The position numbers and the translations under genes were made by a program. The notes under the pieces are model-generated. The model had not been told where the DNA came from, did not search any database, and was given only the letters and a program-made list of their open reading frames with translations. Shown here piece by piece: positions 5,620-32,162 of a stretch of DNA of 42,527 bases; position 1 is the first letter of the stretch, and every line of letters starts with the position of its first letter. Source of the stretch: Candidatus Uhrbacteria bacterium (GTDB lineage: Bacteria; Patescibacteriota; Patescibacteriia; UBA9934; GWF2-40-263); NCBI GenBank assembly GCA_003523645.1, contig DOFP01000007.1, positions 1-42,527 of the forward strand. The letters run 5' to 3'.

Positions 5620-6156
5620 ATGAAGATTACCAGAGAAATGCTTTCCGAATCTTTGAAAACGATTCTCGATATGTTGGTGAAAGATGCCAATCTGCCTGAA
5701 CGCATGCGTTGGGGAACGCATGTTCAGGTGAGAGATATGTCTATTGGCGCGGGTGCTATGGGACGTTTCATTGATGGGATCTTCGAAGTATCTGTGGGTG
5801 AAAATACCTGGGTCTTTGATGGAAACATAAGTGAGACGTCTTGTTACATTGGTTGGAATGTGGAAATTGAAACTGAAACCGGCTCGGTCACAGCTGTGCC
5901 AGTCATGAAGACACATTATAAGAGCGGACCAAAACCTCTCGATCCTGTATTGTTCGGTTTTGAACCACGAACCATTGGATCTTTGGGTCCATTGCGTCGA
6001 TTTATTCCGTCCAGCGATGATGATGATCTGAGAGATCAAATAGATCTCGTCATCAAGAATTATGGTTTTTCTTTTGTGTATGGAACACTAGAGGAAGTTC
6101 GTCGAGGTCGTGCAATATTGTACAAATGCTTGAGTGGATTTATCCATTCAACTTAA
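5620..6156 (+). CDS. Hypothetical protein (178 aa)
   Basis: ATG at 5620 with RBS GAAAGGAAAGact. Followed directly by a strong terminator. Confidence 0.55.
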   Translation: MKITREMLSESLKTILDMLVKDANLPERMRWGTHVQVRDMSIGAGAMGRFIDGIFEVSVGENTWVFDGNISETSCYIGWNVEIETETGSVTAVPVMKTHYKSGPKPLDPVLFGFEPRTIGSLGPLRRFIPSSDDDDLRDQIDLVIKNYGFSFVYGTLEEVRRGRAILYKCLSGFIHST

Positions 6157-6188
6157 AAACCACCTTTTCGGTGGTTTTTTCTTTTTTT
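6157..6188. terminator. Rho-independent terminator shared by convergent genes
   Basis: AAAAACCACC-ttttc-GGTGGTTTTTTCTTTTTTT. Confidence 0.8.
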
Positions 6189-6198
6189 AAAGGAAAAA

Positions 6199-7029
6199 TT
6201 AAACACGATCACGTAATTGTTTTTCACCTGGTCCAAATGTTTTGTGATCTTGTTTGCGGCGTGGATTTTGACGGAGATCTTTTTCTTGTTTTGCGAGAAA
6301 AGCAAATCGTCTCGCATCTATTTTATCCGAATATTCATACGCGGTTCGGAATGTCTCAAGAAATGCGGGGATTTCAACTTTTCCGTTTGTTGGAATCCAA
6401 TCCTCGTCATTTTGTTGAGTCCATCCGGCTGATTCAATGGCGGAAACCTGTGCCTGATCCGCAAGATAAAGAGCAAGAACATCCGTAATTTCCATTGCTG
6501 TTGCCAATCCTTCCTTTCCTTGCATTTTCTCTTTTTGCAGTTTGTGATCTAAATCTACTAACTTTGATTTTCTTTTATCCATTTCTTGTTTCAATTCCTG
6601 TTTTGTGGCTCGTAGATCTACTCCTTTCTCAGTCAAAACTTTTTCATATCCTCTGATTTCTCCTAAGAATGCTTCTGCCTTTTTTGTATCGGCCTCTATC
6701 TGAAATCCGCTTTCCAAAAGTGCTTCAAATTTTTTTTCTTGTATTTTTCTTTCCTGATCCGCTTCTGTTGGTTCTTGATGTGATTCGAACTGTCCTGTTT
6801 TTCTTCGTGGGAGAGTCGACAGTTTTGCAGAAACAAGATCAATAGCCTTTCTCATTTTTTCTAAAACGCCATGTAAACGATTTTTTTCTTTTTCCGTTTC
6901 CTGTGTTGCTTCTTTGAAGCGTTCTCCTAATCTTTCCTGGTCACTTTTTTCCACTCGTTTAATAACCTCCTTTTCCGCCGGTTGTTGTGGTCTTGTTTCT
7001 CCTTCTCCTCCGCTTTTAAAGAAAGCCAT
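6199..7029 (-). CDS. Charged coiled-coil protein (276 aa), function unknown
   Basis: Long ORF rich in E/K/R/Q heptad-like sequence. No enzymatic motifs. Confidence 0.6.
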   Translation of the reverse strand: MAFFKSGGEGETRPQQPAEKEVIKRVEKSDQERLGERFKEATQETEKEKNRLHGVLEKMRKAIDLVSAKLSTLPRRKTGQFESHQEPTEADQERKIQEKKFEALLESGFQIEADTKKAEAFLGEIRGYEKVLTEKGVDLRATKQELKQEMDKRKSKLVDLDHKLQKEKMQGKEGLATAMEITDVLALYLADQAQVSAIESAGWTQQNDEDWIPTNGKVEIPAFLETFRTAYEYSDKIDARRFAFLAKQEKDLRQNPRRKQDHKTFGPGEKQLRDRV

Positions 7030-7363: not shown

Positions 7364-8167
7364 ATGGACATTATCATCGGTCAAGAAATTGGTGAATATC
7401 GCACTGAATCCCTTGTTGCGCGTGGAACAAATTCAACCATTTATAGAGGCACTCATCTTCTCATGGGAGAGGAAGTTTGTCTCAAGCGGTATGACCTTGA
7501 CATAAAGCCTGCAATTCCGATTGGGGAAGCGGATGTTTTGTCACGGTTGCAACATACGGAGATTCCAAAATTTCGGAATCTTCTTTCGTTAAAAGATGAT
7601 TCTTATGTGGTTGTCACGCATTTCGTTTCCGGTTCCCCATTGGGTCAAGCCGTGCAAAAGCACGGAAATATGGATCCGGAAATCGTGGCATCATTCTTGG
7701 AGAGAATGTTGCATTTGCTCAGATATATGCATGTAGATCAGAGATGTGTGCATGGAGACATCAAGCCAGAGCATATTTTGGCAAGGACTGATCATTCGAT
7801 TACGCTTGTTGGATTCGGCGTTGCGGAATTTTCTTCTGGAAATTGGGAAAAGAATCGAGGGTGGACAGACTTGTTCGCTCCACCAGAACAAGTTGAGGGT
7901 CGTCCGCTTGTTCCACAGATGGATCTTTACGCACTTGGAATGAGTATGGTGTATCTGCTCTGTGGTGGAAACGAGGAACAATTTAAGAATGGAGAAATTC
8001 CGGACGAAGTCCCCGACCCTATGGGACGATTCCTCTCTCGTTTGGTCATGAAGGATCCTGCCAAACGTTTGAACTGGACGCAGATGGATCTTTTCAAGGA
8101 GTGGGTGGAGATCCGTTTCGAGTGTTTCAAGAGGTCGACGACAGAAGGAAAACTACTCTTTCTTTGA
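7364..8167 (+). CDS. Ser/Thr protein-kinase-fold protein (kinase-like; DFG replaced by GFG)
   Basis: RBS GAGAAGGGGAAAAcaATG. Beta3 Lys in VCLKRY, alphaC Glu in EADVLSRL, catalytic loop HGDIKPEHIL (HRD-like with Asp retained), VGFGVAEF in place of DFG, APE-like FAPPEQ. Paralogous to the C-terminus of 25696-27423. Confidence 0.75.
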   Translation: MDIIIGQEIGEYRTESLVARGTNSTIYRGTHLLMGEEVCLKRYDLDIKPAIPIGEADVLSRLQHTEIPKFRNLLSLKDDSYVVVTHFVSGSPLGQAVQKHGNMDPEIVASFLERMLHLLRYMHVDQRCVHGDIKPEHILARTDHSITLVGFGVAEFSSGNWEKNRGWTDLFAPPEQVEGRPLVPQMDLYALGMSMVYLLCGGNEEQFKNGEIPDEVPDPMGRFLSRLVMKDPAKRLNWTQMDLFKEWVEIRFECFKRSTTEGKLLFL

Positions 8168-8296
8168 GTGATCTGACATGAGGATTTCCGGCACGGAGAT
8201 CCTTTTTTCTTGACGTTTTTTCTCTTTTTGCTAGGGTTGGATGTCGTTCTGGTAGAATGATGTGTTTCTTAAAACTGAATAAGGAAGGAGAAAGAA

Positions 8297-9313
8297 GTGT
8301 CGCGAGGAGGAACTGATTATGACCGTGACGTGTCGGATCGGTCCATGCGAACGAGTAGTGGCTTTACCACAGTCGCAGAGGAAGCGATGGCAACACGACA
8401 ATGGTTCGACCCTGCTCTGTTGCCAAAAGGGAGAGTGATCAAGACACTTTGCAAGAGCCCGATCGCTCTTCCATTTGATGTAACCGGATCCTTGGGGGGT
8501 CTCGCCAAGATCACCTATGACAAAATGCCCATGACTGCCGGAGAACTCAAGAAGCGTTCCTATCTTCAGGACTGTCAGATTTGTCCGATCGCGGTCGGAG
8601 ATGTTGTTTCCGACAGAGGACCGCTCCAGATCGGGGAATTCGTCGTTCCGCGGGAACTTGACAGTTATCTTCAACGCCTTTGGCTCGAAGGGGGAGGTGG
8701 TCGTCAAGGATATGAGTCCTATGAATTCGTCGCCTATTTCCTTGCATACCATTGCGATATTCCAGAGGCCGACACACCATTCGTCATTTTTATAGGTGAT
8801 GAACGGTTCCGGGAGGACCTTCATAGAAATGCGCTTCAAGCGTATTTCGGAGGTATTGAGCATGAAGACATGAATGCTTTCAAAGTGTTTGCCGACCTCA
8901 GGAGAAAGTTCAAGAACAATGTATTTCTGATTCACCGATATTACGATGACATGTGTACGGATAAAGAAGTCATTGACCAGTGGTCAGGAGTTCTTGGAGC
9001 CGATCACGTGATCAATCTCGGACACGGAAACGACACAGCTGTTGCAGACGTCATGCTCGGCATCTTTGCCCTGATGGGCGGGACACGAACTCTGGATCAG
9101 TATCTGGAAGATATGCGGGAACGCGGTCAGGATCAGACGCGTCTTGCCTTTGTTCGTAGGGCTCTGTCTGTTCTGAAGCCGCCGTCCTCAATCCAGAAAA
9201 AAGAGGAAGATGCAGATCAGTCGCAGCAGGTATTGGCGGCGGAAGAGAAGCAGAAAAGTCCGTCCCGCAAGAAGGGAAAATCCGTCTTCGATTCCTCGAA
9301 TTGGGACGTCTGA
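8297..9313 (+). CDS. von Willebrand factor A (vWA/MIDAS) domain protein, locus-1 copy
   Basis: GTG start after AAGGAAGGAG. MIDAS-like DVTGSLGG, GGGG loop and YEFVAYFLAYH. Collinear with 27442-28452 (DVSGSMGF, GGGGG, PEYALYWAATH). Confidence 0.75.
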   Translation: MSRGGTDYDRDVSDRSMRTSSGFTTVAEEAMATRQWFDPALLPKGRVIKTLCKSPIALPFDVTGSLGGLAKITYDKMPMTAGELKKRSYLQDCQICPIAVGDVVSDRGPLQIGEFVVPRELDSYLQRLWLEGGGGRQGYESYEFVAYFLAYHCDIPEADTPFVIFIGDERFREDLHRNALQAYFGGIEHEDMNAFKVFADLRRKFKNNVFLIHRYYDDMCTDKEVIDQWSGVLGADHVINLGHGNDTAVADVMLGIFALMGGTRTLDQYLEDMRERGQDQTRLAFVRRALSVLKPPSSIQKKEEDADQSQQVLAAEEKQKSPSRKKGKSVFDSSNWDV

Positions 9314-9416
9314 AGACAATTTAACCTGTGGGATGCTGGTGCTCAAAATTTTGCACTTGTCGTTCCACAGGTTTTTTAGAAAGTTTCGTTTTTAAGAATC
9401 AATCATCGGAGGAAAG

Positions 9417-10811
9417 ATGAATCATATCATTGGTCGCGGGATTGGACTCGGAGATGAGGGAAAGGGAAAGATCATAGCGGCCATCGGACGGAAACTTGGC
9501 ATTCGGACAGGTATACGCGACACTGGAGCCAATCAAGCCGTTCATCACCTTCCAGGACCTAATGGTATTTGGCATGGGTTTGCGCAATTTTGTTCCCATT
9601 CCTTTCAGAATGACGCGTGGACATTCCTCGCGCGGGGTATGGCGGTTGAGCTTGAGGCACTTGTGCGTGAGGCGGAAGTGCTGGTGACCAAAGGAGTCGT
9701 TGATCCTATTCGACGGGTTGTGATCGATGACCAGTGTGCGATTGTGACACCCATGCACAAAATGGTCGGACGTATGGAGGAATTGATTCGTAGGCGTGGT
9801 TCGTGCGGTATGGGCGCAGGAAGAACAATTCGCGATCGGGAGGCAGGAAAAGGAATTCGAGTTTCACATGTTCTGGACGGATCCGTTCGAGATCGGTTGC
9901 GGGAAATGGTGACAGAAACCATAGCCGAGGCGCGACAGTTACTTGAACAACATCCGACCGATGATATGCGTGCTGAATTTTCCTATTTCATTCATCGGTG
10001 TAATCCGGACATGCTGGCCGAAACCTATGAACATATTCTTGCGTATTCTGGCGTACTGGTAGACCATGATCGTCGGTTATTTCTGCAGCGCATCCAGGAG
10101 GAACGGGTATTTTTCGAGGGGGCACATGGAACTTTGTTGGATGTCCGGTTCGGATTCCATCCGTATGTGACTCAGTCCAAGACCACGTGGCAACATATCG
10201 AGGAGCTTGTCAGTCCTCAAATATCCTTGAAAAAACTTGGGATCTCGAGGTCTTATAGTCTTCGATATGGCATGGGACCTCTCATAACAAAAGACCCTAT
10301 CCTTTCGAAACATCTTCAGGATTCACGTAATCCTGAAGATTCTTGGCAGGGGTCAGTACACATTGGATGGCTTGACCTTCCGATGTGGAGATATGGAATT
10401 CTGTTAAACGATCGACTCGATGGTATTGCCCTTACTTGTCTTGACCACCTAACTGGGTATCCAAGCATTCGAGTATGTACGTCCTATTTTTATGATGGAA
10501 AGCAGGACTCGCTCGATACATTCTTTGAATGGACGCGCACCAAACAAGGAACAGCCGAGATCCTCGGTTTCAAGAAGCCAGAACTACCATTCGAGAGCGA
10601 AGAACGCACGCGGATTCTTCATCAATGTAGGCCTGGTAAGTGGATTGAATTTCCGGGGTGGAACAAGGACATCCGACAAGTAAGACGGGTGCAAGATCTA
10701 CCGAAAGCCGCCCGCAACTATGTTGACTTTCTTGAAAGCTGGGCAGGATTTGCTCTGCCCATTCGGATCATTTCGGTTGGTCCGGATGTTGAAAGCTCAA
10801 TTTTTATCTGA
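9417..10811 (+). CDS. Adenylosuccinate synthetase (PurA)-family protein, highly divergent, locus-1 copy
   Basis: RBS GGAGGaaagATG. PurA P-loop GLGDEGKGKI, GANQAVHH (cf. GGHNAGHT), FFEGAHGTLLDVRFGFHPYVTQSKTT (cf. PurA [25 protein letters not shown]), SYSLRYGMGPLITKD (cf. AYSTRVGAGPFPTEL), LTCLDHL (cf. LTKLDVL). Confidence 0.8.
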   Translation: MNHIIGRGIGLGDEGKGKIIAAIGRKLGIRTGIRDTGANQAVHHLPGPNGIWHGFAQFCSHSFQNDAWTFLARGMAVELEALVREAEVLVTKGVVDPIRRVVIDDQCAIVTPMHKMVGRMEELIRRRGSCGMGAGRTIRDREAGKGIRVSHVLDGSVRDRLREMVTETIAEARQLLEQHPTDDMRAEFSYFIHRCNPDMLAETYEHILAYSGVLVDHDRRLFLQRIQEERVFFEGAHGTLLDVRFGFHPYVTQSKTTWQHIEELVSPQISLKKLGISRSYSLRYGMGPLITKDPILSKHLQDSRNPEDSWQGSVHIGWLDLPMWRYGILLNDRLDGIALTCLDHLTGYPSIRVCTSYFYDGKQDSLDTFFEWTRTKQGTAEILGFKKPELPFESEERTRILHQCRPGKWIEFPGWNKDIRQVRRVQDLPKAARNYVDFLESWAGFALPIRIISVGPDVESSIFI

Positions 10812-10812
10812 A

Positions 10813-10842
10813 ATCCGTGACGCATACTCGCGGATTTTTTTG
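10813..10842 (+). terminator. Rho-independent terminator after the PurA-like gene
   Basis: ATCCG...CGGAT hairpin followed by TTTTTTTT. Confidence 0.6.
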
Positions 10843-10843
10843 T

Positions 10844-10871
10844 ACAAAAAATCCGTCTTGTTCAGACGGAA
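10844..10871 (-). terminator. Rho-independent terminator for the convergent minus-strand gene
   Basis: On the minus strand: CCGTC-tgaacaa-GACGG followed by ATTTTTT. Confidence 0.6.
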
Positions 10872-10877
10872 AGTCGT

Positions 10878-11411
10878 TTAGGGTCCGGCACAGAGCGGGG
10901 GTTCTTGATTCCGGAATTTGGTACGCAATATGAGAAGATTTTTTTTCTCCTGCTCATATGCTTCCAATTCCACGGGATCTGTCGGTAGAACAAAGATGAT
11001 TGTGTTGCAGTGTTGACAATACTGGTACGTTTTTTTCTCTCTCGGATCCGCAAGAAGCGGTCGTGAGAAACTTATGACATTGTAGACGAGCTCCTCGAGT
11101 TCGTTTCTCCAGGATTCTGGGATCATCGTGTTTTGTTGGAAGGAAGCGAACCCGCAGACAGGACACTGTTCAGGGCAGACATCCGGGTTCTGGAACGAAG
11201 TAAGAGCTTGTTCCCGAATTTGTTCCGGTGTTTTTCCACGATGTTCAGCTTCGAAGGATAGGGAGCATTTATTACATCCCAACCGTTCGAGAACTTCATA
11301 AGAATACCCTGTTTGCGTGCATCGGGTATTCCAGATTCCGATGAGCCGTCCTTCTTTACATGAAGGACAAGAATGGTTCATTAGTAAACCTTTCAATTGT
11401 TCCAGACTCAT
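10878..11411 (-). CDS. Cys-rich zinc-ribbon protein (177 aa), function unknown
   Basis: RBS AGGAGGaaacccc-ATG. Multiple CxxC pairs (CPSCKEG, CNKCS, CPEQCPVCG, CQHCN). Confidence 0.6.
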   Translation of the reverse strand: MSLEQLKGLLMNHSCPSCKEGRLIGIWNTRCTQTGYSYEVLERLGCNKCSLSFEAEHRGKTPEQIREQALTSFQNPDVCPEQCPVCGFASFQQNTMIPESWRNELEELVYNVISFSRPLLADPREKKTYQYCQHCNTIIFVLPTDPVELEAYEQEKKNLLILRTKFRNQEPPLCAGP

Positions 11412-12103: not shown

Positions 12104-13390
12104 TTGAGGAAAAGTTTTGTGTCAGTTATGCTACGGAGCATGTCATTTTCTCTCTTCTCTTCTCGTATACGTTTGCCGCGAACAGTGACATTTCTCATTG
12201 TCCTTGTTTGTATTTTAACATCGTTTGTTTTTGGATTGTTTCTTGGACGCCAGCAAGGAGTTCGTCTGGCTGTTCCGTCTGGAGAAGGTCGTGTGTTGGG
12301 TCAAGGGGGGAAAACAATGACGGCATTGGAAAAAGATGTTGACTTCCAATTATTTTGGAATGTTTGGAATTTGGTAAAAGAAACATACTATCAACAACCT
12401 GTTTCTGATAAATCGCTCTTTTATGGAGCGGTCATGGGAATGGTTGCAGGATTACAGGATCCATATTCTGTGTTCTTTGATCCAACAGCTGCAGAAGAAT
12501 TCAATAAAGATTTGACAGGAAGTTTTGAAGGAGTCGGAGCGGAAATCGGTATCAAAAATCATCAGCTGCAAATCGTGGCTCCATTGCCAGGAAGTCCAGC
12601 TGAAGCAGCTGGGATAAAATCAGGTGATAAGATTTTTTTGATTGACGGAAAAGAGACAGCCAACATGACCGTAGAAGAAGCCATATCTTTGATTCGCGGA
12701 GAACGAGGGACAACGGTCGTTTTGACAATTTCTCGAGACGGATTAAAAGATGTCATGGAAGTTTCGGTTGTTCGCGATACGATAAAAGTGAATAGTGTAC
12801 GTGCGGAAATGCGTGAAGACGGCATCGCAGTTATTCACATGTATTTATTTAATGAAGACACGGAACCGTTGTTTACCGCGGCTGTGAATGAAAGTCTGAG
12901 TCATGGAGCACGAGGAATCATTCTTGACTTACGGAGCAACCCAGGTGGACTTTTAACAGCTGCGATTGATGTGGCAAGTGCATGGATTGGTAAAGATCCG
13001 GTTGTCATTCAACGCGTTCGTGATCGACAAGATGTGTTTCCCGGATCTGTCTCTGCTCGTTTGCAGGGAATTCCAACCGTGGTGCTTGTAAACGGCGGTT
13101 CCGCTTCCGGTTCGGAAATTGTTGCCGGAGCTTTGCAAGATTATGGTTATGCAACACTTATCGGAGAACAAACATTTGGAAAAGGATCTGTCCAGGATTA
13201 TCGCGAGTTAGATGACGGGTCTGCAGTAAAAATTACCATTGCCGAATGGTTGACTCCATATGGACGTTCGATTAATCATGTGGGAATTGCTCCGGATGTG
13301 CAGGTTCCGTTTACGGAAGAGGATTTTAAAAATGGACGTGATCCACAATTTGATACAGCCATTGAATGGCTTCAAAAGGCTATCAAATAA
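12104..13390 (+). CDS. ctpA: Carboxyl-terminal processing protease (S41 family, PDZ domain), membrane-anchored
   Basis: N-terminal TM. PDZ segment GSPAEAAGIKSGDKIFLIDG. S41 motifs GIILDLRSNPGGLL and LVNGGSASGSEIVAGALQD...GEQTFGKGSVQ. Confidence 0.9.
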   Translation: MRKSFVSVMLRSMSFSLFSSRIRLPRTVTFLIVLVCILTSFVFGLFLGRQQGVRLAVPSGEGRVLGQGGKTMTALEKDVDFQLFWNVWNLVKETYYQQPVSDKSLFYGAVMGMVAGLQDPYSVFFDPTAAEEFNKDLTGSFEGVGAEIGIKNHQLQIVAPLPGSPAEAAGIKSGDKIFLIDGKETANMTVEEAISLIRGERGTTVVLTISRDGLKDVMEVSVVRDTIKVNSVRAEMREDGIAVIHMYLFNEDTEPLFTAAVNESLSHGARGIILDLRSNPGGLLTAAIDVASAWIGKDPVVIQRVRDRQDVFPGSVSARLQGIPTVVLVNGGSASGSEIVAGALQDYGYATLIGEQTFGKGSVQDYRELDDGSAVKITIAEWLTPYGRSINHVGIAPDVQVPFTEEDFKNGRDPQFDTAIEWLQKAIK

Positions 13391-13473
13391 TGTCTTGTAT
13401 GAATCATGTGCCTTCTCCGGAATCTATTCCACGGTCTCGACCGTCACGTTCAAGTTCAAAACGTGCAAAAAAT

Positions 13474-13920
13474 ATGGTTCATGAAGTATCAGCGGGCGGG
13501 CTTGTATTCAAACGAACTCCAAAAGGAATTTTGTTTGCCATGATGAAAGATTCGTATGGAAAATGGACGTTCCCAAAAGGACATGTAGAATCTGGAGAAG
13601 AAAAAGAAGAGGCTGCTGCCCGGGAAAGCATGGAAGAACTGGGTCTAGAACAAATTCGACTTCTCGAATCATTAGGACAAATTACGATTTGGTTTCGTGA
13701 TCGTTTTGTAAAAAAAGGAGCGCTGGTTCACAAAGACATTCATTATTTTTTATTTGCGACTCTTCCGGACACAGAATTGTTTCCTCAAACATCTGAACAT
13801 ATCCAGGAAGCTGCATGGATTCCAGCAAAGGAATTATTGGAACGATCTTTTTATCCGGATCTTGTTCCTGTGATCAAACGTGCGCTCATGTACGTGCGTA
13901 TTCACGGAGGAACCGTTTAA
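13474..13920 (+). CDS. Nudix hydrolase
   Basis: Nudix box GHVESGEEKEEAAARESMEELGLE. Start uncertain (in-frame alternatives at 13366 and 13393 overlap the ctpA end). Confidence 0.8.
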   Translation: MVHEVSAGGLVFKRTPKGILFAMMKDSYGKWTFPKGHVESGEEKEEAAARESMEELGLEQIRLLESLGQITIWFRDRFVKKGALVHKDIHYFLFATLPDTELFPQTSEHIQEAAWIPAKELLERSFYPDLVPVIKRALMYVRIHGGTV

Positions 13921-23198: not shown

Positions 23199-23230
23199 AA
23201 AGACCCGGAATAAACCCCAGGTCTTTTTTC
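23199..23230 (+). terminator. Rho-independent terminator after murG
   Basis: AAGACC...GGTCTT hairpin followed by TTTTTT. Confidence 0.6.
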
Positions 23231-23236
23231 GAAATT

Positions 23237-23389
23237 ATTCTGCGTCCTCTTCGTTGACATCCATATCTTCTTCATCGCCCATATCATCTATGTCATCATC
23301 TGTGTCCATTTCGGCGCATTCGTCGCATTTGGTTTCGTCATTGATTTCGACGTCTTCGGCGTGGCAGACGGAACAAACTCCCATCATAC
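23237..23389 (-). CDS. Possible small acidic CxxC protein (50 aa): MMGVCSVCHAEDVEINDETKCDECAEMDTDDDIDDMGDEEDMDVNEEDAE
   Basis: Uninterrupted minus-strand ORF between murG and tRNA-Lys. No clear RBS and below the ORF-track length cutoff. Confidence 0.2.
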
Positions 23390-23560
23390 GTGCTTAGATT
23401 CATTTACGAATAATGCGAGGTCCACAAAAGAGTGGATCCTAACGGGCATTAGTATAACTGACGTGTTTTTATCGTCAATATAGTTGTGGATAACGTTTTT
23501 TTTCACCGCATAATCACTTGCTTTTTTTTATTTGGTGGTATACGATTTTCGCACTTTCGC

Positions 23561-23635
23561 GCGCTGGTAGCTCAGTGGTAGAGCGGGGGCCTTTTAAGCC
23601 CAAGGTCGTGGGTCCGATCCCCACCCAGCGCACCA
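23561..23635 (+). tRNA. tRNA-Lys (anticodon TTT), CCA encoded
   Basis: Cloverleaf by hand: acceptor GCGCTGG/CCAGCGC, D-arm GCTC-agtggta-GAGC, anticodon loop cTTTTaa, T-arm GTGGG-tccgatc-CCCAC. Unusual C at T-loop position 55 and G-A at pair 27-43. Confidence 0.85.
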
Positions 23636-23781
23636 AAAAAACACCGCTAAATAAGCGATGTTTTTTTGTAAATTGACCAATCGAGTGAGTACTTTAGTTT
23701 AAAAAAAAAACGAAACTCTCCGCAAAATTGAGGTTTTTTGATATGCTGTATATATAATGCTTTCGTTTATTTTGAACATCT

Positions 23782-24759
23782 ATGGATGGAAAAAATGTAT
23801 TTGGAATAGAAGGAGAAGTGAGAAGTAAGACCATTACTAAATATGAAAAAGATCAAAATCCTGAACGAGTAGAACAGATCAATGAAGGAGTTGAACATCC
23901 AAAATTAGTTTCATTTGATTTAGAAGGAGAAAAAGTTCAAATCGAATACATTGAAGTTCCTGCGAAAAAACAAGAACAACATGAAGGAGAAAAAGAAAAA
24001 GTTATTATTCTTTTTCCTGGTTTTTGTGCTTCCTATATTCCGTATGTGGGTGCGGTAAAAGAATTGGCTGGATACATGGGAAATTATCGTATCATTTGTC
24101 TATCCCCATTGGACTCAGGAAAAAGTTCGTCTTTGAAAGAAAGTCATCTGCAAAAAATGGGCGAGGTATACCGTGCGGCATTTCAGAAATTGGGAATTGA
24201 TTCAGCTCATACGGAAGCAACCGTGATTGGTCATTCACGATCAGATATTATTGCATTGGAACTTGCGCGGTCTGTGCCAGAACTTGTGAAAAATATTGCG
24301 CTTGTGAATGGAATTACCGGGAAAAAAGAAGGTCTTGCAGGACTTACGTATGATTTTACTGAACACACATTTTTAGATATTACTCCGGAAAGAATGAAAG
24401 GACTTTTCAAAGGGGAAGTGGAAGCAGCGAGAAATTATTTGAATCAAACAAGAGACTTTTTGAGAAACATGTTGAAACCCACTCACATATTGAACCAATT
24501 TAGCTCATTGAATGAACGAAAAAAAGTGAATGTAAAGGAATTGCTTTCTCAATTGAAATCTAATGTCCTTATTTTGAGCGGAACCGGAGATATTACGGAT
24601 TATAAAGAAACACGAGAAAATATTTATGAAAATTTGCCAGAGAATATCCAGGCGGAACATCATTTGGAAATAGGTGGATTGCATGATGAGATCAATGCGC
24701 ATCCAGAAGGATTTGTATTGAAGTTTCGCAAATGGATGGAGTCAGTGGAGAAGGTATGA
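23782..24759 (+). CDS. Alpha/beta-hydrolase-fold protein (putative)
   Basis: Nucleophile-elbow-like VIGHSRSD and hydrophobic beta strands (VIILFPGF). Start uncertain. Confidence 0.5.
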   Translation: MDGKNVFGIEGEVRSKTITKYEKDQNPERVEQINEGVEHPKLVSFDLEGEKVQIEYIEVPAKKQEQHEGEKEKVIILFPGFCASYIPYVGAVKELAGYMGNYRIICLSPLDSGKSSSLKESHLQKMGEVYRAAFQKLGIDSAHTEATVIGHSRSDIIALELARSVPELVKNIALVNGITGKKEGLAGLTYDFTEHTFLDITPERMKGLFKGEVEAARNYLNQTRDFLRNMLKPTHILNQFSSLNERKKVNVKELLSQLKSNVLILSGTGDITDYKETRENIYENLPENIQAEHHLEIGGLHDEINAHPEGFVLKFRKWMESVEKV

Positions 24760-24892
24760 TTGAATAGATGTAGAAAATATTTAATATGTCAAATAAACTT
24801 GACATTTTTTTATTTTTTTGATAACATAAGGACATTCATCGTCCTTTTTTGGTAGATATAGCCACAATATGTGGCTTTCACGAGGAGGAAAA

Positions 24893-25363
24893 ATGAGTTT
24901 GAACCGGATGGTCGCAAACGCGCGGCAAAGAGAGCGAAACAACGAACGCCGATCCCGTTGTCGGGAAGCGATCGATGAATGTCTACGGGCTGTCCGCGGG
25001 GTGGATGGGGCAACCTTCGATGATTTCCACTGGATTCAGAATCGTATCACGGATCCGGTCGTCTCGGCTGCTCTGAGGGATGAAAATGTTTCCCTTCAGG
25101 AGTATGTCCAGTGGGAAGCGGCTTACAAAGCCGATACTCCGAATCGGAATGCACGAGAACTCGCGAGAAAATGCGAGGAAGCACAATCCGCTTTGGACGA
25201 CTTTCGTAAATCCGCGGATTGGTTTGATCAAGAGGATTTGATTTCAATTCTGGAGTATCGTCACTTGGTTGGTGACGAGGCCTTCTGTATTGAATTTCAT
25301 ATTTCTCAAGACGAACTTGAGAAAATTGATAACTGGGAGAATAAGGATTTGGAAGATTGGTGA
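24893..25363 (+). CDS. Hypothetical protein (156 aa)
   Basis: ATG after GAGGAGGaaaa. Charged helical protein. Confidence 0.5.
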   Translation: MSLNRMVANARQRERNNERRSRCREAIDECLRAVRGVDGATFDDFHWIQNRITDPVVSAALRDENVSLQEYVQWEAAYKADTPNRNARELARKCEEAQSALDDFRKSADWFDQEDLISILEYRHLVGDEAFCIEFHISQDELEKIDNWENKDLEDW

Positions 25364-25455
25364 TCTTCCAAAAAAATTCGCGCACATGCGGGACGGAGAG
25401 CGTGTATACGCTCTAAGTCCTGTGTGTGTTTTTTTTGTTTATACGTCTAAAAATC

Positions 25456-25483
25456 TTGACAGGTAGGTTGTTTTTGTTATACT
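25456..25483 (+). promoter_or_regulatory. Putative sigma70-type promoter about 210 nt upstream of the locus-2 operon
   Basis: TTGACA, 16-nt spacer, TATACT. A second TATAAT lies at 25492. Confidence 0.45.
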
Positions 25484-25695
25484 TTATGTCTATAATACAT
25501 TTACTATTTTTTATTTCAAGAAACTTGATGTCATTTTGACTAAAAATGGCTTGACTGACAACAAATTTCATGATAGGTTCTTCGGTCTTTCTTTTCGCCC
25601 CAAAATTCGTCAATAATTGTTGGCAGTTTTAGGGAGGGAATAAATCTCTCACCAAATGGTGATCTTTCACAATTAAAACAAAAAAAGGAGAAATC

Positions 25696-27423
25696 ATGAC
25701 TCTTGATCCTAAGATGTATCTGTCAATTTCTGTGCCTGAAAATTTGAGGAATGGACTCATTGCTATGATGGTTCGTCATTTCCTCTTGAAACAGGTCATC
25801 GGAAACGAATACGTAGCATCTCAAGCCGCACGTGAAATTATGACCGCTTTGTACGGTTTTCATTCAACGTTCGCTCAGATTCAAAGCACGTCAAAAGAAG
25901 ATTTTGAAAAAGCAACTCAAAAAGCCGGTATTTCTGGTATCCCTGTGGCTGGTTTCAAAGAACTCCCGGACGTGTGGCATCTGGTGAATCCTGAAACTCC
26001 GATGTGTTCCCATTGTGGGGATGTACCGCTTTCGAATAATGGATCCTTCATTCAGAATCTGGTTGTTGGGTCTAAGTGTCCCTTCTGTCATGTGGGAGAG
26101 TTTGTTCTCATTCCTATGACTTTGAAAAAGATTACTTGGACTGACGGCAGACTTGTGGATCCGTCTATGAGAGAAGATTATCAGTTCATCACAGGAGAAC
26201 AAATTCCTCTGGATGATGACTTGATTATGGATTGGGTCAATGTTCGTATTCAGCCAGATCTTAAACAAGCATTGGTAGAAGCACAGGTTTCCATATATGG
26301 ATTTCTTGCTTATGCCAACTTGGTTCGCAACGCGTTCAGCGGTCGCAAGGAATCCGAGGAAGGATTGTGCAAGGCTGTTGGTTGGTTGCTTGAGGATCCG
26401 GAAGTATGCAACCTGCCGGTTTCTATTATGGCTGAAGAGGCTATGAAAGCCCGGCAGTATGTGGAAGAAAGAGAAGTGACGAACATGCCACGGATTTTGA
26501 AGTCCACGAGCGTTATCCTTCCTGTATCTTCTGTTGTGGCAACTGTTGTGAATCCGTTTGCTCCGATGAATGAACGAGATCCAACATCCTATATACGGAC
26601 TCGTCTACTCGCATCTGGAGATATGGCTGATATTTATCTTGGCCATCTCAACGATCCATTCGCGGACAAACAGGAGACAGTGATCATCAAGGTGTACCGA
26701 GATGCAGAAGACACTGGGATGGCTCGTAACGAGGCACAAACTTTGGAGCGTTTATACGGAAGTGCTGAGACTGAGAAAGCTGAAGGTTTCCTTCATGGAT
26801 TTCCCAAGGTTCTTGCATACGGACCAGTAACGGATTCTGACGGAGTTGTGCACGAATGTAATGTGTTTTCGTACACTCCTGGCTACATGACTTTGGAAGA
26901 AGTTTGTCGTGACGATCATCGGGTCGATATTCGAACAGGTGTGTGGATGTTCAACCGTATTCTCGAAATGCTTGGTTGGATTCACCAGCACGGCATTATT
27001 CTTGGATCGGTTCTTCCATCCCATATCCTTGCCCAGCTTGATGAACACTGGATCGTTTTTCTTGGATGGCCCTATGCAGTTCATGAGCCAGAGAAAACCG
27101 GTGCACGCATTCTCGCGGTCAGTCAGGCGTACGAGTCTTTTTATCCGGAAAGTGTGTTTCGAAAGAAACCGCCGTCTCCGGCAATGGATATCTCGATGGC
27201 TGCGCGGTGTGTGATCCAGGTTGTAGGTGGAGATCCGATCACGGGGAAATTGCCTCGTGGAGAAGATCCGCTATTTGAGACGATTTTGAAGACAGCTGCC
27301 GGTCTTCATGGTTCTGTTCCGTTCAAGAACGCTTGGCAGTTGCATGAGGCGTTCGGAGAAGTTGCGCGTTCCGTTTTAGGGCCGCGTAAGTTTCATCCAT
27401 CCCGGGTGTTCAAAAAAACCTGA
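25696..27423 (+). CDS. Zinc-ribbon plus pseudokinase-domain protein (575 aa), locus-2 copy of the kinase-fold component
   Basis: RBS AAAGGAGaaatcATG. N-terminal region has CSHCG...CPFCH. C-terminal protein-kinase fold: VIIKVY (beta3 K), EAQTLERL (alphaC E), HQHGIILGSVLPSHIL (HRD Asp lost), FLGWPYA (DFG lost). Collinear with 7364-8167. Confidence 0.75.
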   Translation: MTLDPKMYLSISVPENLRNGLIAMMVRHFLLKQVIGNEYVASQAAREIMTALYGFHSTFAQIQSTSKEDFEKATQKAGISGIPVAGFKELPDVWHLVNPETPMCSHCGDVPLSNNGSFIQNLVVGSKCPFCHVGEFVLIPMTLKKITWTDGRLVDPSMREDYQFITGEQIPLDDDLIMDWVNVRIQPDLKQALVEAQVSIYGFLAYANLVRNAFSGRKESEEGLCKAVGWLLEDPEVCNLPVSIMAEEAMKARQYVEEREVTNMPRILKSTSVILPVSSVVATVVNPFAPMNERDPTSYIRTRLLASGDMADIYLGHLNDPFADKQETVIIKVYRDAEDTGMARNEAQTLERLYGSAETEKAEGFLHGFPKVLAYGPVTDSDGVVHECNVFSYTPGYMTLEEVCRDDHRVDIRTGVWMFNRILEMLGWIHQHGIILGSVLPSHILAQLDEHWIVFLGWPYAVHEPEKTGARILAVSQAYESFYPESVFRKKPPSPAMDISMAARCVIQVVGGDPITGKLPRGEDPLFETILKTAAGLHGSVPFKNAWQLHEAFGEVARSVLGPRKFHPSRVFKKT

Positions 27424-27441
27424 AAAAAAGGAGAGATTGAA

Positions 27442-28452
27442 ATGGCAAAAGGATGGAATACATCGACCCATCAAGAGGTTGAGAAGAAGATGCAGCAGGT
27501 CAAGGAAACAGGCGGAAGTGTGCCAAATGATGGGACAAATCCATACCTGGTTCATCCGCTTATGGATCCTTTGAAGATCAAGAGTGGCATAAGGGAAAGC
27601 TGTGATAGTGCGGAGCAGCTTTTATCGCTTGCCATTATTTTTCTCATGGATGTGAGTGGTTCCATGGGGTTTGTTCCTGAACAACTCAGAACTCGCTATC
27701 TTTGTGAGCTCATGAAGTTTTTGCTTGGCGGGAAACTGGTTGTGGATCCACAGATCATGTTCGCCGCATTTGCGGACGTTGCAGATCGGTGCTTCTTGCA
27801 GGTTGGACAGTTCGAACTCGGAACTGAAATGCACGGGGATCTTTCTCGTTTGCGTATTGGTGGTGGCGGAGGAAGTGCAATGGCGCACGAAGCGCCGGAA
27901 TATGCTCTCTATTGGGCAGCGACCCATACCAAGATTGATTGCTTCGAAAAGCGAAGAAAAAAAGGAATTCTCGTCATAACGACCGATGAAATGCCGAATG
28001 ATAAACTCAAGAAAGAGTATGTCAGGCGTTTTATTGGAGATGGATTAGAAAACGACTTCACGATCGAACAGGTCATTGCACTTGTCCGACAGAAGTACGA
28101 CATTTTCTGTCTGTACACCCATACAGGTTCGTATGGCAGCATGGACAAAGAGATCCGAGCCAGGTGGGTGGAGATCCTCGGATCCGAATATGTTTTCGAC
28201 TTTTACCAGTCTGAAGATATTTGTGCTCTGGTCGGATCCATTATTGGATTGCGAGAGGAAATGGTGAATAATCTAGATGATCTCCGTAATCGTCTCCGTG
28301 GTCTTGAGACTTCGGAGGAAACCATTACTCGGGTGTTGCGGACGGTTTATGGATACGCGACTCTTCTTGGAAGAGGTCAGGTCAATGGGGTGACCCAGAA
28401 GGCTGACGCTCCCGTTGAGAAATCGAAAACAACCGGCAATCGTCGGTTGTGA
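27442..28452 (+). CDS. vWA/MIDAS domain protein, locus-2 copy
   Basis: RBS AAAGGAGAGattgaaATG. Canonical MIDAS IIFLMDVSGSMGF, GGGGGS loop, ILVITTDEMPND. Confidence 0.85.
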   Translation: MAKGWNTSTHQEVEKKMQQVKETGGSVPNDGTNPYLVHPLMDPLKIKSGIRESCDSAEQLLSLAIIFLMDVSGSMGFVPEQLRTRYLCELMKFLLGGKLVVDPQIMFAAFADVADRCFLQVGQFELGTEMHGDLSRLRIGGGGGSAMAHEAPEYALYWAATHTKIDCFEKRRKKGILVITTDEMPNDKLKKEYVRRFIGDGLENDFTIEQVIALVRQKYDIFCLYTHTGSYGSMDKEIRARWVEILGSEYVFDFYQSEDICALVGSIIGLREEMVNNLDDLRNRLRGLETSEETITRVLRTVYGYATLLGRGQVNGVTQKADAPVEKSKTTGNRRL

Positions 28453-28525
28453 TTCGCAGGTAAAAACATGAGGAGGCCTGCATACTCGCAGGTCTCCTTT
28501 TTACATCTTTTATATTGGAGGAATC

Positions 28526-29959
28526 ATGAACGATTTAGAGTTTGGTCGAACATCCTACCTGATTCGCGATTTGATATTTGGAGATAGTGGAAAGGGAACT
28601 ATCGGAGAGTTTCTCACATGGTGGCTTGATCAATTCGCGCCAATTTGGTCAAAGGTTCATACAGTCATTCGGACCGAGGGTGGTCATCAGGCCATACACA
28701 ACAATATCCTTCCCGATGGACGACATCATGGATTTTCCCAGTTTGGGTCGGGAAGTCTCACGTCTCCGATTTGGACACACCATGCAAAGGGAATGATGGT
28801 CGAGCCACTGCACGCACTTGACGAGGGAAAGGATTTGCAGCATTTGGGCGTGCGGGATATCTTCGGCCGTTTGACTGTGAGTCGCGATGTCCGAATAGTG
28901 ACGCCGTTTCAACAGGCAGCCAACCGTCTTCGCGAATATGCTCGAGGAGTCGGACGGCACGGAAGTTGCGGAAAAGGGATTGGTGAAACTGCATCTGATG
29001 CACTTGCGATCGGAACCGATGCTCTTTATGCAAGAGATCTGATGGATTCTGCAATCCTTCGGGAAAAGTTGTCTCAGATTCAGGCATACAAGCTGGCTCA
29101 GCTCGCAGATCTGATATATCGATTTGGAGATGACAAAGCAATCTCGGCAGAGATCGACTGGCTCACAAATACGGCAGCTTCATCGATTCTCGTCGCGTAT
29201 CTTGGCGAGTTCGTCGAACGCGTGAAGATCGTGGAGAATGCACACATTGGTGGAATTCTTTCCAGGCCGGGTTCGGTGATTTTTGAGGGAGCGCAAGGAG
29301 TTCTCATTGATGAGTGGCGCGGGTTTCACCCGTACACGACATGGAGTACCTGTACGTTTGACAACGCGCTCGAACTTCTCCGCGAACACCAGTATGACGG
29401 CAGGATTGTCCGGATCGGAGTTGTCCGCGCGTATGCAACACGACACGGTGCCGGACCATTTATGACAGAAGATCCATTTCTTACCAATGCACTTCCGGAC
29501 ACATATAACGTGACGGATGTTTGGCAACAGACGTTCCGTGTCGGCTGGTTCGATGCTGTGGCTGCTCGATACGCAATTGCAGCATGTGGTCAGGTAGATG
29601 CATTGGCTGTCACTTGTCTTGATCGAATGCGTGATTTATCTCAGTGGCTCATCTGCACCGGATATGAATTATCTGAAGATGATTCGAATGCGGCAAAGTT
29701 TTTTGAACTGGATCCGCAAAATCCGAGGATTGCGCGTAATATTCGGCTTGGACCTCACAAAGATCTCGTTTATCAAGAGACCTTGACTGAGCAGTTGAAG
29801 CGTGTGAAGCCGATATATGAAGTCTCTGCCAATGCAGCAGACTTTGGCCAGCGTGCAGAGCAGCATCTTGCACGAATCGAATCTGAACTCGGCGTGCCGG
29901 TCGCTATCACATCCTACGGTCCAACCGTTCTGGACAAGCGAATGGTACGCCCCGTTTAA
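28526..29959 (+). CDS. Adenylosuccinate synthetase (PurA)-family protein, highly divergent, locus-2 copy
   Basis: RBS GGAGGaatcATG. Eroded P-loop FGDSGKGTIG, GGHQAIHN, GSCGKGIGET, IFEGAQGVLIDEWRGFHPYTTWSTCT, RAYATRHGAGPFMTED, VTCLDRM. Matches PurA motifs in order. Confidence 0.8.
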   Translation: MNDLEFGRTSYLIRDLIFGDSGKGTIGEFLTWWLDQFAPIWSKVHTVIRTEGGHQAIHNNILPDGRHHGFSQFGSGSLTSPIWTHHAKGMMVEPLHALDEGKDLQHLGVRDIFGRLTVSRDVRIVTPFQQAANRLREYARGVGRHGSCGKGIGETASDALAIGTDALYARDLMDSAILREKLSQIQAYKLAQLADLIYRFGDDKAISAEIDWLTNTAASSILVAYLGEFVERVKIVENAHIGGILSRPGSVIFEGAQGVLIDEWRGFHPYTTWSTCTFDNALELLREHQYDGRIVRIGVVRAYATRHGAGPFMTEDPFLTNALPDTYNVTDVWQQTFRVGWFDAVAARYAIAACGQVDALAVTCLDRMRDLSQWLICTGYELSEDDSNAAKFFELDPQNPRIARNIRLGPHKDLVYQETLTEQLKRVKPIYEVSANAADFGQRAEQHLARIESELGVPVAITSYGPTVLDKRMVRPV

Positions 29960-30012
29960 TAAGGGTTCGAATAAAATCTTGAGGAATCGTTAAAAACGGT
30001 TCCTTTTTGTAT

Positions 30013-30039
30013 AAAAAAACCGCTGCGGAGAAGCAGCGG
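30013..30039 (-). terminator. Rho-independent terminator for the minus-strand gene 30050-30808
   Basis: On the minus strand: CCGCTGC-ttctcc-GCAGCGG followed by TTTTTTT. Confidence 0.7.
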
Positions 30040-30049
30040 AAACGAGTTC

Positions 30050-30808
30050 TTATTTCGGAAAAGGAAGAGCATAAACAGCATCTTCCAAATATTGTTTTAC
30101 TCGATCAATTTCCAAATCACCTTGGAGAGTCCGGAGTTCTGATTCCGTATCGATATTCACTCTTGGAAAGAGTTTTCCAAAAGGTTTTATACGCTCGATT
30201 GTCTTCAATCCGAGTTTACCTGCGATTCCGATGCCGATGTTGGGGAATCGACTCCGGACTTCAGAGATATATGGACCAAGTTTTTTGATATCGAGCATTT
30301 TTCCCTTTGACCCATCTAGATCAAGGAGAATATCTGTCGGAGCATCGCCGTACTCTCCGACTTTTTGTGCGAGTTGTACAGGATCACTATGCACCTGTTC
30401 AAACGCATGATGTCCGACTTGGAGAATAAGTCGGAAGTGAGGAAATCGATTTCGATAGGCACTGAGAACAGTTGGGCGTGGCCAAGCAATGTTCATCTGG
30501 AAACCTTCGAAGTGTGGTCCAGCCAGAGTCGTGATCCGACACATTTGAAGAAACAAGGTGTCAAGATCTGGTGTCGTATAATGAACAAGGTTGAGTGTGG
30601 CTGGATCGTCAGGAAAAAGTTCGACCAGACGATGAATCAGTGGATACTTTTTTGGGTTTCCCGGTGGTTTCCCAAACAATGTTTTCATGTTCGCGAGCAC
30701 TCCGATCATGAGCCGTCGTTTTGTCTCAAGTGTTTTGAAGTGTTTAAGCACTTGGTTTACTTCTGTCCGACTCATAAAGCCGGTGAAGCCGATGTATGGA
30801 GTTTTCAT
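30050..30808 (-). CDS. TIM-barrel protein resembling phosphoribosylanthranilate isomerase (TrpF-like), tentative
   Basis: RBS AGGAGGtatca-ATG. IGFTGF (cf. KICGIT), ILLDLDGSKGKMLD (cf. LLD..GGSGKTFDW), C-terminal VNIDTESE...VKQYLEDA resembles the PRAI C-terminus. Weak call. Confidence 0.4.
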   Translation of the reverse strand: MKTPYIGFTGFMSRTEVNQVLKHFKTLETKRRLMIGVLANMKTLFGKPPGNPKKYPLIHRLVELFPDDPATLNLVHYTTPDLDTLFLQMCRITTLAGPHFEGFQMNIAWPRPTVLSAYRNRFPHFRLILQVGHHAFEQVHSDPVQLAQKVGEYGDAPTDILLDLDGSKGKMLDIKKLGPYISEVRSRFPNIGIGIAGKLGLKTIERIKPFGKLFPRVNIDTESELRTLQGDLEIDRVKQYLEDAVYALPFPK

Positions 30809-30905
30809 TGATACCTCCTTTTATGGTTGAAGTTTCTAGAATGATCCTAACTTGTTTAAAAAGGATGTCAACAATTTTTGCTTGTCGGATGCGTTTGTTT
30901 TGCTT

Positions 30906-31502: not shown

Positions 31503-31507
31503 TTGTT

Positions 31508-32161: not shown

Positions 32162-32162
32162 C

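Follow-up and report, generated by a model that had tools for sequence, protein, structure and literature searches.

A kinase–vWA–PurA-like gene module that occurs twice in a Patescibacteria genome and recurs in phages and plasmids

The adenylosuccinate synthetase (AdSS) PurA (EC 6.3.4.4; PF00709) has a phage-borne paralog with altered substrate specificity in PurZ/PurZ0, the 2-aminoadenylosuccinate synthetase of Z-genome phages, and von Willebrand factor A (vWA) proteins are encoded beside kinases or AAA+ ATPases in several described operons. One of these, the TerY-P triad, a candidate defense system, offers a kinase–vWA precedent. Here, we describe a module that is a variant of vWA–kinase/AAA modules and of phage PurA paralogs alike, and that is so far undescribed: full-text searches returned no literature description of a triad composed of kinase-fold, vWA and PurA-like genes. 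It occurs twice in a stretch of 42,527 nucleotides from a Candidatus Uhrbacteria bacterium (contig DOFP01000007.1 of assembly GCA_003523645.1), which is referred to as the window in the following.

The PurA-like proteins of this module have the fold of PurA and share its GTP-binding P-loop as well as Asp13, Lys16, His41, Gln224, Thr239 and Asp333. They differ from it in replacing the L-aspartate loop and the ligands of the 5′-phosphate of inosine monophosphate (IMP), in scoring below the PurA cut-offs and in always adjoining a vWA gene. PurZ, likewise a phage-borne paralog, has Ser in place of Asp13 (PMC12884076), whereas all 77 module enzymes that we compared keep this residue. PurZ also still uses aspartate, and its genomic context of datZ, mazZ and dpoZ was not seen in the loci read.

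With TerY-P, which consists of the vWA protein TerY, a PP2C phosphatase and a Ser/Thr kinase, the module shares a stand-alone cytoplasmic vWA protein beside a Hanks-type kinase and the organization as a mobile three-gene unit, but it has no PP2C, its third gene is PurA-like and its kinase is usually a J-domain pseudokinase. Membership in TerY-P was rejected, as neither vWA protein of the window has a PADLOC match at E ≤ 0.1 and neither locus has a phosphatase gene. The conserved stress operon PrkA(YeaG)–YeaH(DUF444 vWA)–YcgB(SpoVR) likewise joins a kinase/AAA protein, a vWA protein and a third protein. Here, too, membership was rejected: DUF444 gives the vWA protein of the second locus 13.7 bits (E 0.034, at the metal-ion-dependent adhesion site, MIDAS) against a cut-off of 27 and that of the first locus no match, and neither locus has a PrkA or SpoVR neighbor or a PrkA-type AAA-kinase fusion. 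AAA+/MoxR–vWA chaperone pairs and the archaeal kinase module ArnA/ArnB–ArnC/D also resemble the module, some relatives of which carry an AAA protein; this protein belongs to the classical FtsH/Cdc48 type rather than to MoxR, and the linkage with PurA-like and pyruvate kinase (PK)-like enzymes has no counterpart in the MoxR–vWA and Arn modules. Finally, most kinases of the module join a J domain with an HPD motif to a kinase fold, as do eukaryotic GAK/auxilin-2 and, with respect to the J domain, the phage proteins that hijack DnaK. They differ from GAK/auxilin-2 in domain order and partners, most of them are devoid of the catalytic Asp, and the two kinase-fold proteins of the window have no J domain.

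In the window, the module is represented by the following six genes, in which K, V and A stand for the kinase-fold, vWA and PurA-like products and the numbers for the two loci:

7364–8167, + strand: K1, Hanks-type kinase-fold protein, 267 aa, no J domain (Pfam Pkinase, E 1.2e-27)
8297–9313, + strand: V1, cytoplasmic vWA protein of clade I, 338 aa (MIDAS-type DVTGS, GGGG…ESYE loop, GDE after β4)
9417–10811, + strand: A1, PurA-family protein of clade I, 464 aa (Pfam PF00709, Adenylsucc_synt, E 4e-67)
25696–27423, + strand: K2, pseudokinase, 575 aa (162 bits against the hidden Markov model, HMM, of module pseudokinases)
27442–28452, + strand: V2, vWA protein of clade II, 336 aa (DVSGS MIDAS motif; basic C-terminal tail ending NRRL)
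28526–29959, + strand: A2, PurA-family protein of clade II, 477 aa (Pfam PF00709, Adenylsucc_synt, E 1e-56)

All six reading frames are intact and follow the same K–V–A order on the same strand, an agreement far beyond chance. In BLASTP comparisons, A1 and A2 share 30% identity over 487 columns (E 7e-52), V1 and V2 24% over 244 columns (E 3e-15), and K1 and K2 26% over 97 residues (E 1e-4), a match that is weak when taken alone. The homology of K1 and K2 is nevertheless confirmed, because an HMM built from the module kinases of other genomes gives them 66 and 162 bits, respectively, and a generic kinase control only 23 bits. An earlier note on this DNA, made from its letters alone, had described this repeated gene order as two intact copies of less than 50% identity, and in this it was right: the motifs that it quoted are all present, the pairs are homologous by BLASTP and by profiles, and their identities lie at 22–31%. 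The surrounding genes, which include mraY–ftsW–murG, a murD-like ligase, ribosomal protein L9 and CTP synthase, have the character of a Patescibacteria chromosome, and Candidatus Uhrbacteria GW2011_GWF2_41_16 has a protein that matches V2 at 100% identity.

Against the NCBIfam purA models, A1 scores 178 and A2 131–151 bits, less than half of the equivalog cut-offs of 395–402 bits, and the PurZ model NF038379 gives them 33.5 and 25.6 bits at a cut-off of 300. For a residue-level audit, we aligned 77 PurA-like proteins of the module to E. coli PurA (NC_000913), whose numbering is used throughout, and added 12 phage sequences, those of the Rhizobium and Vibrio phages among them. Gly12, Asp13, Lys16, Gly17, His41, Thr239 and Asp333, the last of which we take to specify guanine, are conserved in all 77 proteins, and Gln224 is found in 76 of them. 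Likewise, all 12 phage sequences keep Asp13, Lys16 and His41, with Asp333 changed to Asn in a single one (from Vibrio). The residues for GTP binding and γ-phosphate transfer (P-loop, Asp13, Lys16, His41 and Asp333) are retained, while the L-aspartate loop and most contacts to the IMP 5′-phosphate are replaced.

According to the AdSS structures of Honzatko and Fromm, Thr300, Thr301, Arg303 and Arg305 form the L-aspartate site, and Asn38, Thr129 and Arg143′ bind the IMP 5′-phosphate. In the aspartate site, Thr301 is changed to Gln and Arg303 is deleted without exception (77/77 module and 12/12 phage sequences), Thr300 is replaced by Tyr or Trp across the module set, and Arg305 by Phe or Trp; the four positions read W-Q-(deletion)-V in A1 and W-Q-(deletion)-F in A2, and a HMMER alignment with Yersinia AdSS shows the gap at the same position of the loop. 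In the phosphate site, Asn38 has become Gln in all 77 proteins (the Vibrio phage retains Asn), Thr128-Thr129 has become Ser-Cys in 73, and Arg143 is lost in favor of His, Ala or Gly. Further changes affect Val273, which is His in 76 of the 77, and Lys331, which is His or Cys. Since both the aspartate loop and the IMP-phosphate contacts are remodeled, these proteins are neither housekeeping PurA, in agreement with the earlier note, nor PurZ. We infer that they are active enzymes and that their product is not adenylosuccinate.

Within this family, it is A1 that stands apart. A2 has a GDSGKGT P-loop, His41, Gln224, His273, Asp333 and an aspartate loop (VWQQ-TFR) that matches the family signature. 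The P-loop of A2, which the earlier note had considered lost, agrees with the consensus of the family, GD[AE]GKG[AT], with both Asp13 and Lys16 in place. A1 has GDEGKGK, His41, Asp333 and the aspartate loop SWQG-SVH, but is the sole deviant at three near-invariant positions, at which Gln224 is replaced by His, His273 by Tyr and Arg306 by His.

As for the kinase-fold partners, neither K1 nor K2 has the full residue set of an active Hanks-type Ser/Thr kinase (Lys, Glu, HRD Asp, Asn and DFG Asp). In the alignment, K1 keeps the β3 Lys, the αC Glu and the HGD Asp, but has His for the catalytic-loop Asn and GFG for DFG and is thereby without both Mg-binding residues. In K2, the kinase fold spans residues ~290–575 and keeps the β3 Lys and the αC Glu, with ILG in the position of HRD and LGW in that of DFG. 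The preceding ~290 residues form an orphan region with a CSHC…CPFC zinc ribbon, outside of which no relative was detectable. A word-indexed search with K2 in 5.8 billion proteins returned only K2 itself, and among phage families it matches phrog_3043, a ‘kinase’ of C1 mycobacteriophages, at E 4e-21. Across ~60 homologs, the β3 Lys and αC Glu are conserved, Asn, Ala, Ser or Thr takes the place of the HRD Asp within a VHGAxxPxN/H motif, and DW(C/S)(Y/F) or GW that of DFG. Given the replacement of both the HRD Asp and DFG, most kinases of the module are pseudokinases.

N-terminal of the kinase fold, 55 of 59 homologs have an HP[DE] motif. A profile of these N-termini, searched against the PDB, matched only J-domain chains among the 80 matches listed, the best being a DnaJ at E 2.4e-8, and hhalign aligned them to E. 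coli DnaJ with a probability of 94.8%. Neither protein of the window has the J domain: K1 is without an N-terminal extension, and K2 shows no HPD motif and no DnaJ match. In clade-II relatives from Massilia and Polyangiaceae, a CxxC…CxxC ribbon takes the place of the J domain, just as in K2; the gain of a zinc ribbon by locus 2, as proposed in the earlier note, is not supported. K1, for its part, scores 213 bits with an HMM of active viral J-domain kinases that adjoin vWA genes, and its nearest relatives are the kinases of seven such viral loci, in which a J domain and a canonical kinase (HGDIKPQN, DFG) are followed by a vWA gene and a PK-like barrel, with no PurA-like gene. Compared with these, K1 appears to have lost the J domain, the catalytic-loop Asn (now His) and the DFG Asp (now Gly). 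Judging by their HMM scores, the two window proteins represent separate kinase subfamilies.

V1 and V2 both have the hallmarks of MIDAS-type vWA proteins, namely a Rossmann-like fold in which β1 is followed by a DxSxS-type motif and β4 by an acidic residue. No family in Pfam, NCBIfam or PADLOC matched either of them, and a PDB sequence search with V1 gave no useful match. V2 matches phrog_2971 (E 3e-35) and has its closest relatives, at no more than 40% identity, in Massilia, Duganella, Polyangiaceae and Planobispora. At the N-terminus of the family, an MG[GHS][GS]x[YW] motif is found in register in 306 of 319 members (P0001–P0379), with Gly2 present in 96%; this residue is missing from V1 and V2 (window positions 8297–8340 and 27442–27480). 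It is also missing from the phage loci that combine an active J-domain kinase with a PK-like gene and no PurA-like gene, where the vWA protein starts with MSESADY. By contrast, it is kept in a locus (L005, 8001–9482) that pairs kinase and vWA genes but lacks a PurA-like gene in the vicinity. The idea that Gly2 serves as the nucleophile of the PurA-like enzyme is consistent with the phage loci, but not with L005 or with the two vWA proteins of the window. The L005 protein has 493 residues with an insertion of ~150, and many of its relatives have ~490–516. The C-terminal tails of the family are basic, ending in R-[LIV] or K-x-L-L, and resemble DnaK-binding peptides. Protist homologs of the vWA protein (P0054–P0120), for instance those from Pelomyxa and from EukProt transcriptomes, carry fused U-box (PF04564) or SAM domains.

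The module is widespread and horizontally mobile. The V1 family has 793 matches in the set of 5.8 billion proteins and 2,664 representative clusters (E ≤ 1e-3) in a library of 1.84 billion, and a genome scan confirmed at least 501 relatives among GTDB species representatives. In the loci that we fetched, in which genes were identified with phmmer on six-frame open reading frames (ORFs), kinase-fold, vWA and PurA-like genes follow each other on one strand at about 60 of 80 GTDB loci, mostly from Actinomycetota, with Rhodococcus, Nocardia, Saccharothrix, Actinoplanes and a Mycobacterium species among the carriers. Order and strand are also kept in Eremiobacterota, Massilia, Planobispora and Polyangiaceae, and the vWA gene is found on plasmids of Rhodococcus, Tsukamurella, Variovorax and Agrobacterium.

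Among phages, the vWA gene occurs in 201 Mycobacterium phages of the phage collection, which are of cluster C/Bixzunavirus types (for example Bxz1, I3, Cali and Dandelion). Dandelion has it as gp268, located between gp267, annotated as a Ser/Thr kinase, and gp270, annotated as ‘PurA’; kinase and PurA-like protein are listed as conserved in all C1 members (PMC9476963). In IMG/VR, 59 of 80 viral loci have the complete triad, on contigs of up to 512 kb with GC contents of 26–71%. Jumbo phages of Rhizobium and Vibrio have the vWA–PurA-like pair. In two of them, Rhizobium phage RHph_Y65 (L178, 2169–2960) and Vibrio phage SRILMA (L179, 2611–3330), the pair is preceded by a shared protein of ~240–260 residues that replaces the kinase and has a DGVVWDxM motif and a Met/Gly-rich tail; RHph_Y65 also has an NMNAT/Nudix gene 3 kb upstream.

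Considering all these loci, the core of the module consists of a MIDAS-type cytoplasmic vWA protein beside a PurA-fold enzyme, with a variable third partner. Usually, this partner has a kinase fold and is mostly a pseudokinase, with a J domain at its N-terminus and in some cases a zinc ribbon; alternatively, it is an AAA+ ATPase together with a PK-like barrel. The latter architecture, in the order AAA ATPase – vWA – PK-like barrel – PurA-like, is found in L092, whose vWA protein is 49% identical to V1, and in several Patescibacteria and Myxococcales; the loci with all four genes are L092, L013, L014, L015 and L017. The AAA protein is of the FtsH/Cdc48 type and has ~650 residues, whereas the barrel is truncated to ~310 residues and has the pyruvate kinase motifs KIE and ARxDL. 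A further recurrent neighbor is an NrtR-like Nudix-wHTH (winged helix-turn-helix) gene, which flanks the module in 62 of ~85 loci (L008 and L019–L089, at ~6000–6900 or ~10000–10900). Its Nudix box is intact where it lies upstream (Actinoplanes, Planobispora) and degenerate where it lies downstream (Rhodococcus, Nocardia). A NUDIX gene in the window (13366–13920) was considered as its counterpart and rejected, with no similarity at E < 1e-5.

The explanation that we consider best, and moderately probable, is that a switch of vWA and (pseudo)kinase or AAA+ proteins controls a GTP-dependent PurA-fold enzyme, with NrtR-type regulators indicating a nucleotide ligand. The vWA/MIDAS protein and its ATP-binding partner, be it a pseudokinase, a kinase or an AAA+ ATPase, would form a protein-level switch that controls or targets the enzyme, and the J domain of most homologs would recruit DnaK and thereby couple the switch to it. 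The enzyme itself would use GTP to activate an oxo group, as PurA does, but with another substrate and/or another nucleophile, and the NrtR-type regulators may point to an ADP-ribose-like or other nucleotide ligand. Because large lytic phages and plasmids carry the module and its spread across phyla is patchy, its role would lie in the modification of nucleotides, in signaling or in nucleotide depletion during phage–host conflict or stress, and not in housekeeping purine synthesis.

Several points weigh against this explanation. K1 and K2 have no J domain, so that the coupling to DnaK may not apply in the window. We infer the substrate, the product and the physical interaction of K, V and A from the sequences. 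Moreover, no PADLOC model matches V or A and no phage genes lie near either locus, so that a conflict role in this genome is suggested by distribution only.

We tentatively propose, at a lower level of confidence, that the vWA-linked PurA-fold enzymes catalyze a new GTP-dependent reaction, switched by the vWA protein and an Hsp70-recruiting J-domain pseudokinase, and that they define a new class of conflict modules. The reaction may be an aspartate-independent amination or ligation at the oxo group of a purine, or may attach a nucleotide to a peptide or another amine. That the chemistry is truly new appears doubtful to us at present.

Among the alternatives, one that we consider possible, if on the unlikely side, is a phage module for host takeover or counter-defense, of which the cellular copies, including both window loci, would be captured or domesticated genes. 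It agrees with the conserved presence in the cluster C mycobacteriophages, both of the vWA gene in 201 of them and of kinase and PurA-like protein in all C1 members, with the frequency of the full triad in IMG/VR and with the phage affinities of the kinases, given that the best relatives of K1 are viral and that K2 matches phrog_3043. The hijacking of DnaK by phage J-domain proteins is a known theme. It agrees less well with the hundreds of chromosomal copies, which resemble stable cellular operons with their NrtR-like regulator, and with the surroundings of the two window loci, around which there are no phage structural or PHROG matches. PHROGs gave no phage signal for ten neighboring ORFs of the window, and the presence of a recognizable prophage around either of them was rejected.

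Rather unlikely, in our view, is a cellular anti-phage system of the abortive-infection type, in which the vWA and (pseudo)kinase proteins would sense infection and activate the PurA-like enzyme, which would drain GTP or IMP or make a toxic or signaling nucleotide. The patchy spread across phyla and plasmids, which resembles horizontal gene transfer, the linked NrtR-like (ADP-ribose-type) regulator and the kinase–vWA precedent of TerY-P are all in line with such a system, as is a Polyangiaceae locus that sits among patatin, STAND-kinase and PD-(D/E)XK genes. However, most actinobacterial loci have ordinary neighbors, PADLOC has no model that matches V or A, and the module is most uniform and most frequent in lytic large phages, which argues for a benefit to the phage, even if phages can carry defense genes.

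It is improbable that the PurA-like proteins are housekeeping or salvage adenylosuccinate synthetases of a reduced genome, with regulatory or unrelated neighbors. Patescibacteria depend on nucleotide salvage, the window has genes for CTP synthase and GTP cyclohydrolase II, and the strong PF00709 matches come with an intact P-loop, Asp13, His41 and Asp333. Yet no member keeps the aspartate-binding loop, changes affect Asn38, Thr129 and Arg143 as ligands of the IMP phosphate, and the scores fall below half of the purA equivalog cut-off. In addition, the same subfamily is fixed beside vWA genes both in phages and in those Actinomycetota with large genomes, which have a normal purA.

As to the presence of two loci in one genome, the simplest and most likely reading is that two old lineages of the module were acquired independently. 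In distance-based neighbor-joining (NJ) trees with one outgroup and limited sampling, A1 and A2, or V1 and V2, are sisters in none of 200 bootstrap trees. The trees of the PurA-like and vWA proteins agree: A1 and V1 fall into a clade I with sequences from Patescibacteria, Myxococcota and Eremiobacterota, and A2 and V2 into a clade II with Massilia, Polyangiaceae, phage Dandelion, Actinomycetota and some Patescibacteria, with the clade I bipartition recovered in 178 of 200 bootstraps (89%) for the PurA-like and in 198 of 200 (99%) for the vWA proteins. Identities follow the same pattern. A1 is 39–43% identical to its clade I relatives in Myxococcota, Saccharibacteria and Eremiobacterota, A2 is 44–46% identical to proteins of Actinoplanes and Polyangiaceae, and the two share 31% with each other; V1 is 47–48% identical to its nearest clade members and 22% to V2, which in turn shares 34–39% with the nearest members of its own clade. 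The earlier note itself had named such an outcome, in which the copies have closer relatives than each other, as a refutation of its reading. Separate acquisition is favored because the copies are never sisters and have closer relatives in other phyla and in phages.

The sequence context of the loci offers additional indications, among them the following features, each of which is a consensus match only:

8180–8204, + strand: terminator-like hairpin in the K1–V1 gap, 11-bp stem and T-run
25456–25483, + strand: promoter-like site upstream of K2, TTGACA, 16-nt spacer, TG-TATACT, 11/12 matches
29981–30005, + strand: terminator-like hairpin directly 3′ of A2, 11-bp stem and T-run

Both modules have a GC content of 47–49.5% (measured at 7500–10500 and 27000–30000), compared with 40–43% in the surrounding genes, and locus 2, together with a few orphan genes, sits between murG and murD and thus interrupts the dcw cluster. 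This GC content, the interruption, and the promoter-like site and terminator-like hairpin of locus 2 suggest a foreign origin. The hairpin behind A2 would close a K2–V2–A2 operon, and the one behind K1 may separate the transcription of K1 from that of V1–A1.

Certain observations count against independent acquisition: the elevated GC content could stem from amino-acid composition rather than from foreign origin, the trees have the limits given above, and two acquisitions would look the same as a duplication of extreme age whose paralogs both spread widely by lateral transfer.

Of the two loci, it is locus 2 that has the typical operon of its clade. Locus 1 is an atypical, partly degenerate hybrid, as it combines a kinase of the ‘active’ subgroup that is devoid of a J domain and both metal ligands with a PurA-like protein that has three unique substitutions. 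The earlier note had seen locus 1 as the copy with an intact PurA P-loop and kinase catalytic Asp; this is correct for the GDEGKGK motif of A1 and the HRD Asp of K1, but the Mg ligands of K1 are gone and three residues of A1 deviate. The subfunctionalization that it had suggested finds no support, since locus 1 is the more aberrant copy and the changes in locus 2 are the family norm. Its central proposal, an ancient duplication with both copies kept, taken here as a tandem-type event within the lineage with locus 1 as the catalytic and locus 2 as the regulatory copy, draws on the shared architecture and order, the homology of all three pairs, their presence in one 42-kb window and the recurrence of adjacent clade I and clade II vWA genes in other Patescibacteria (in tandem in L014 and L015), but is highly improbable in view of copies that are never sisters in 200 bootstraps and have closer relatives in other phyla and phages, of supposed losses in locus 2 that are the norm of the family, and of kinases from different subfamilies.

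Beside locus 1, the window has one further feature that had been noted before:

10878–11411, − strand: Cys-rich ORF of 177 aa in convergent orientation, several CxxC pairs; a neighbor, not a conserved member of the module

This ORF has no match in Pfam, NCBIfam, PADLOC or PHROGs. As a member of the module it was rejected, since its homologs are found only in near-identical contigs (L001–L003) and beside no other copy of the module. Locus 2, an α/β-hydrolase gene, several orphan ORFs and a translin gene constitute an accessory island (23200–32800) between murG and the murD-like ligase, inside the dcw cell-wall cluster. The Translin-family ORF (30852–31502, + strand; Pfam E 5.6e-18) is located immediately downstream of locus 2 and belongs to a family found mainly in eukaryotes and archaea. 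Further along, an ORF of 872 residues (38439–41057, + strand), equal in size to the eukaryotic major vault protein (MVP), has an MVP shoulder domain (Pfam E 6.6e-26) and Vault_3, aligns with its residues 482–820 to residues 465–814 of rat/human MVP (E 2e-14), and has a GC content of 0.52 between flanks of ~0.42. Such a vault-protein homolog is unusual for a Patescibacteria genome.

The wider relevance of the module lies in the large number of proteins that it concerns. A published count lists 481 phage PF00709 proteins, 147 of them PurZ, and characterizes only the PurZ group (PMC12884076). This leaves ~330 phage proteins outside of PurZ (481 − 147), which carry annotations such as ‘PurA’ or ‘2-aminooxy adenylosuccinate synthetase’ and include those of ~200 cultivable cluster C mycobacteriophages. 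The vWA-linked members among them, with their remodeled substrate site, their fixed vWA partner and, usually, a J-domain pseudokinase, constitute a testable module, for which M. smegmatis phages, Rhodococcus, Massilia, and the Vibrio and Rhizobium jumbo phages are tractable carriers. If the chemistry is new, it would add a reaction of the PurA fold to nucleotide biology and to phage–host conflict, and the corresponding class of conflict modules would span large phages, Actinomycetota and Patescibacteria, with relatives of its vWA protein fused to U-box domains in protists. If it is not, hundreds of annotations could still be corrected. For the Patescibacteria, finally, the maintenance of two such modules in a genome of roughly 1 Mb suggests that they are important for an epibiotic, phage-exposed lifestyle.

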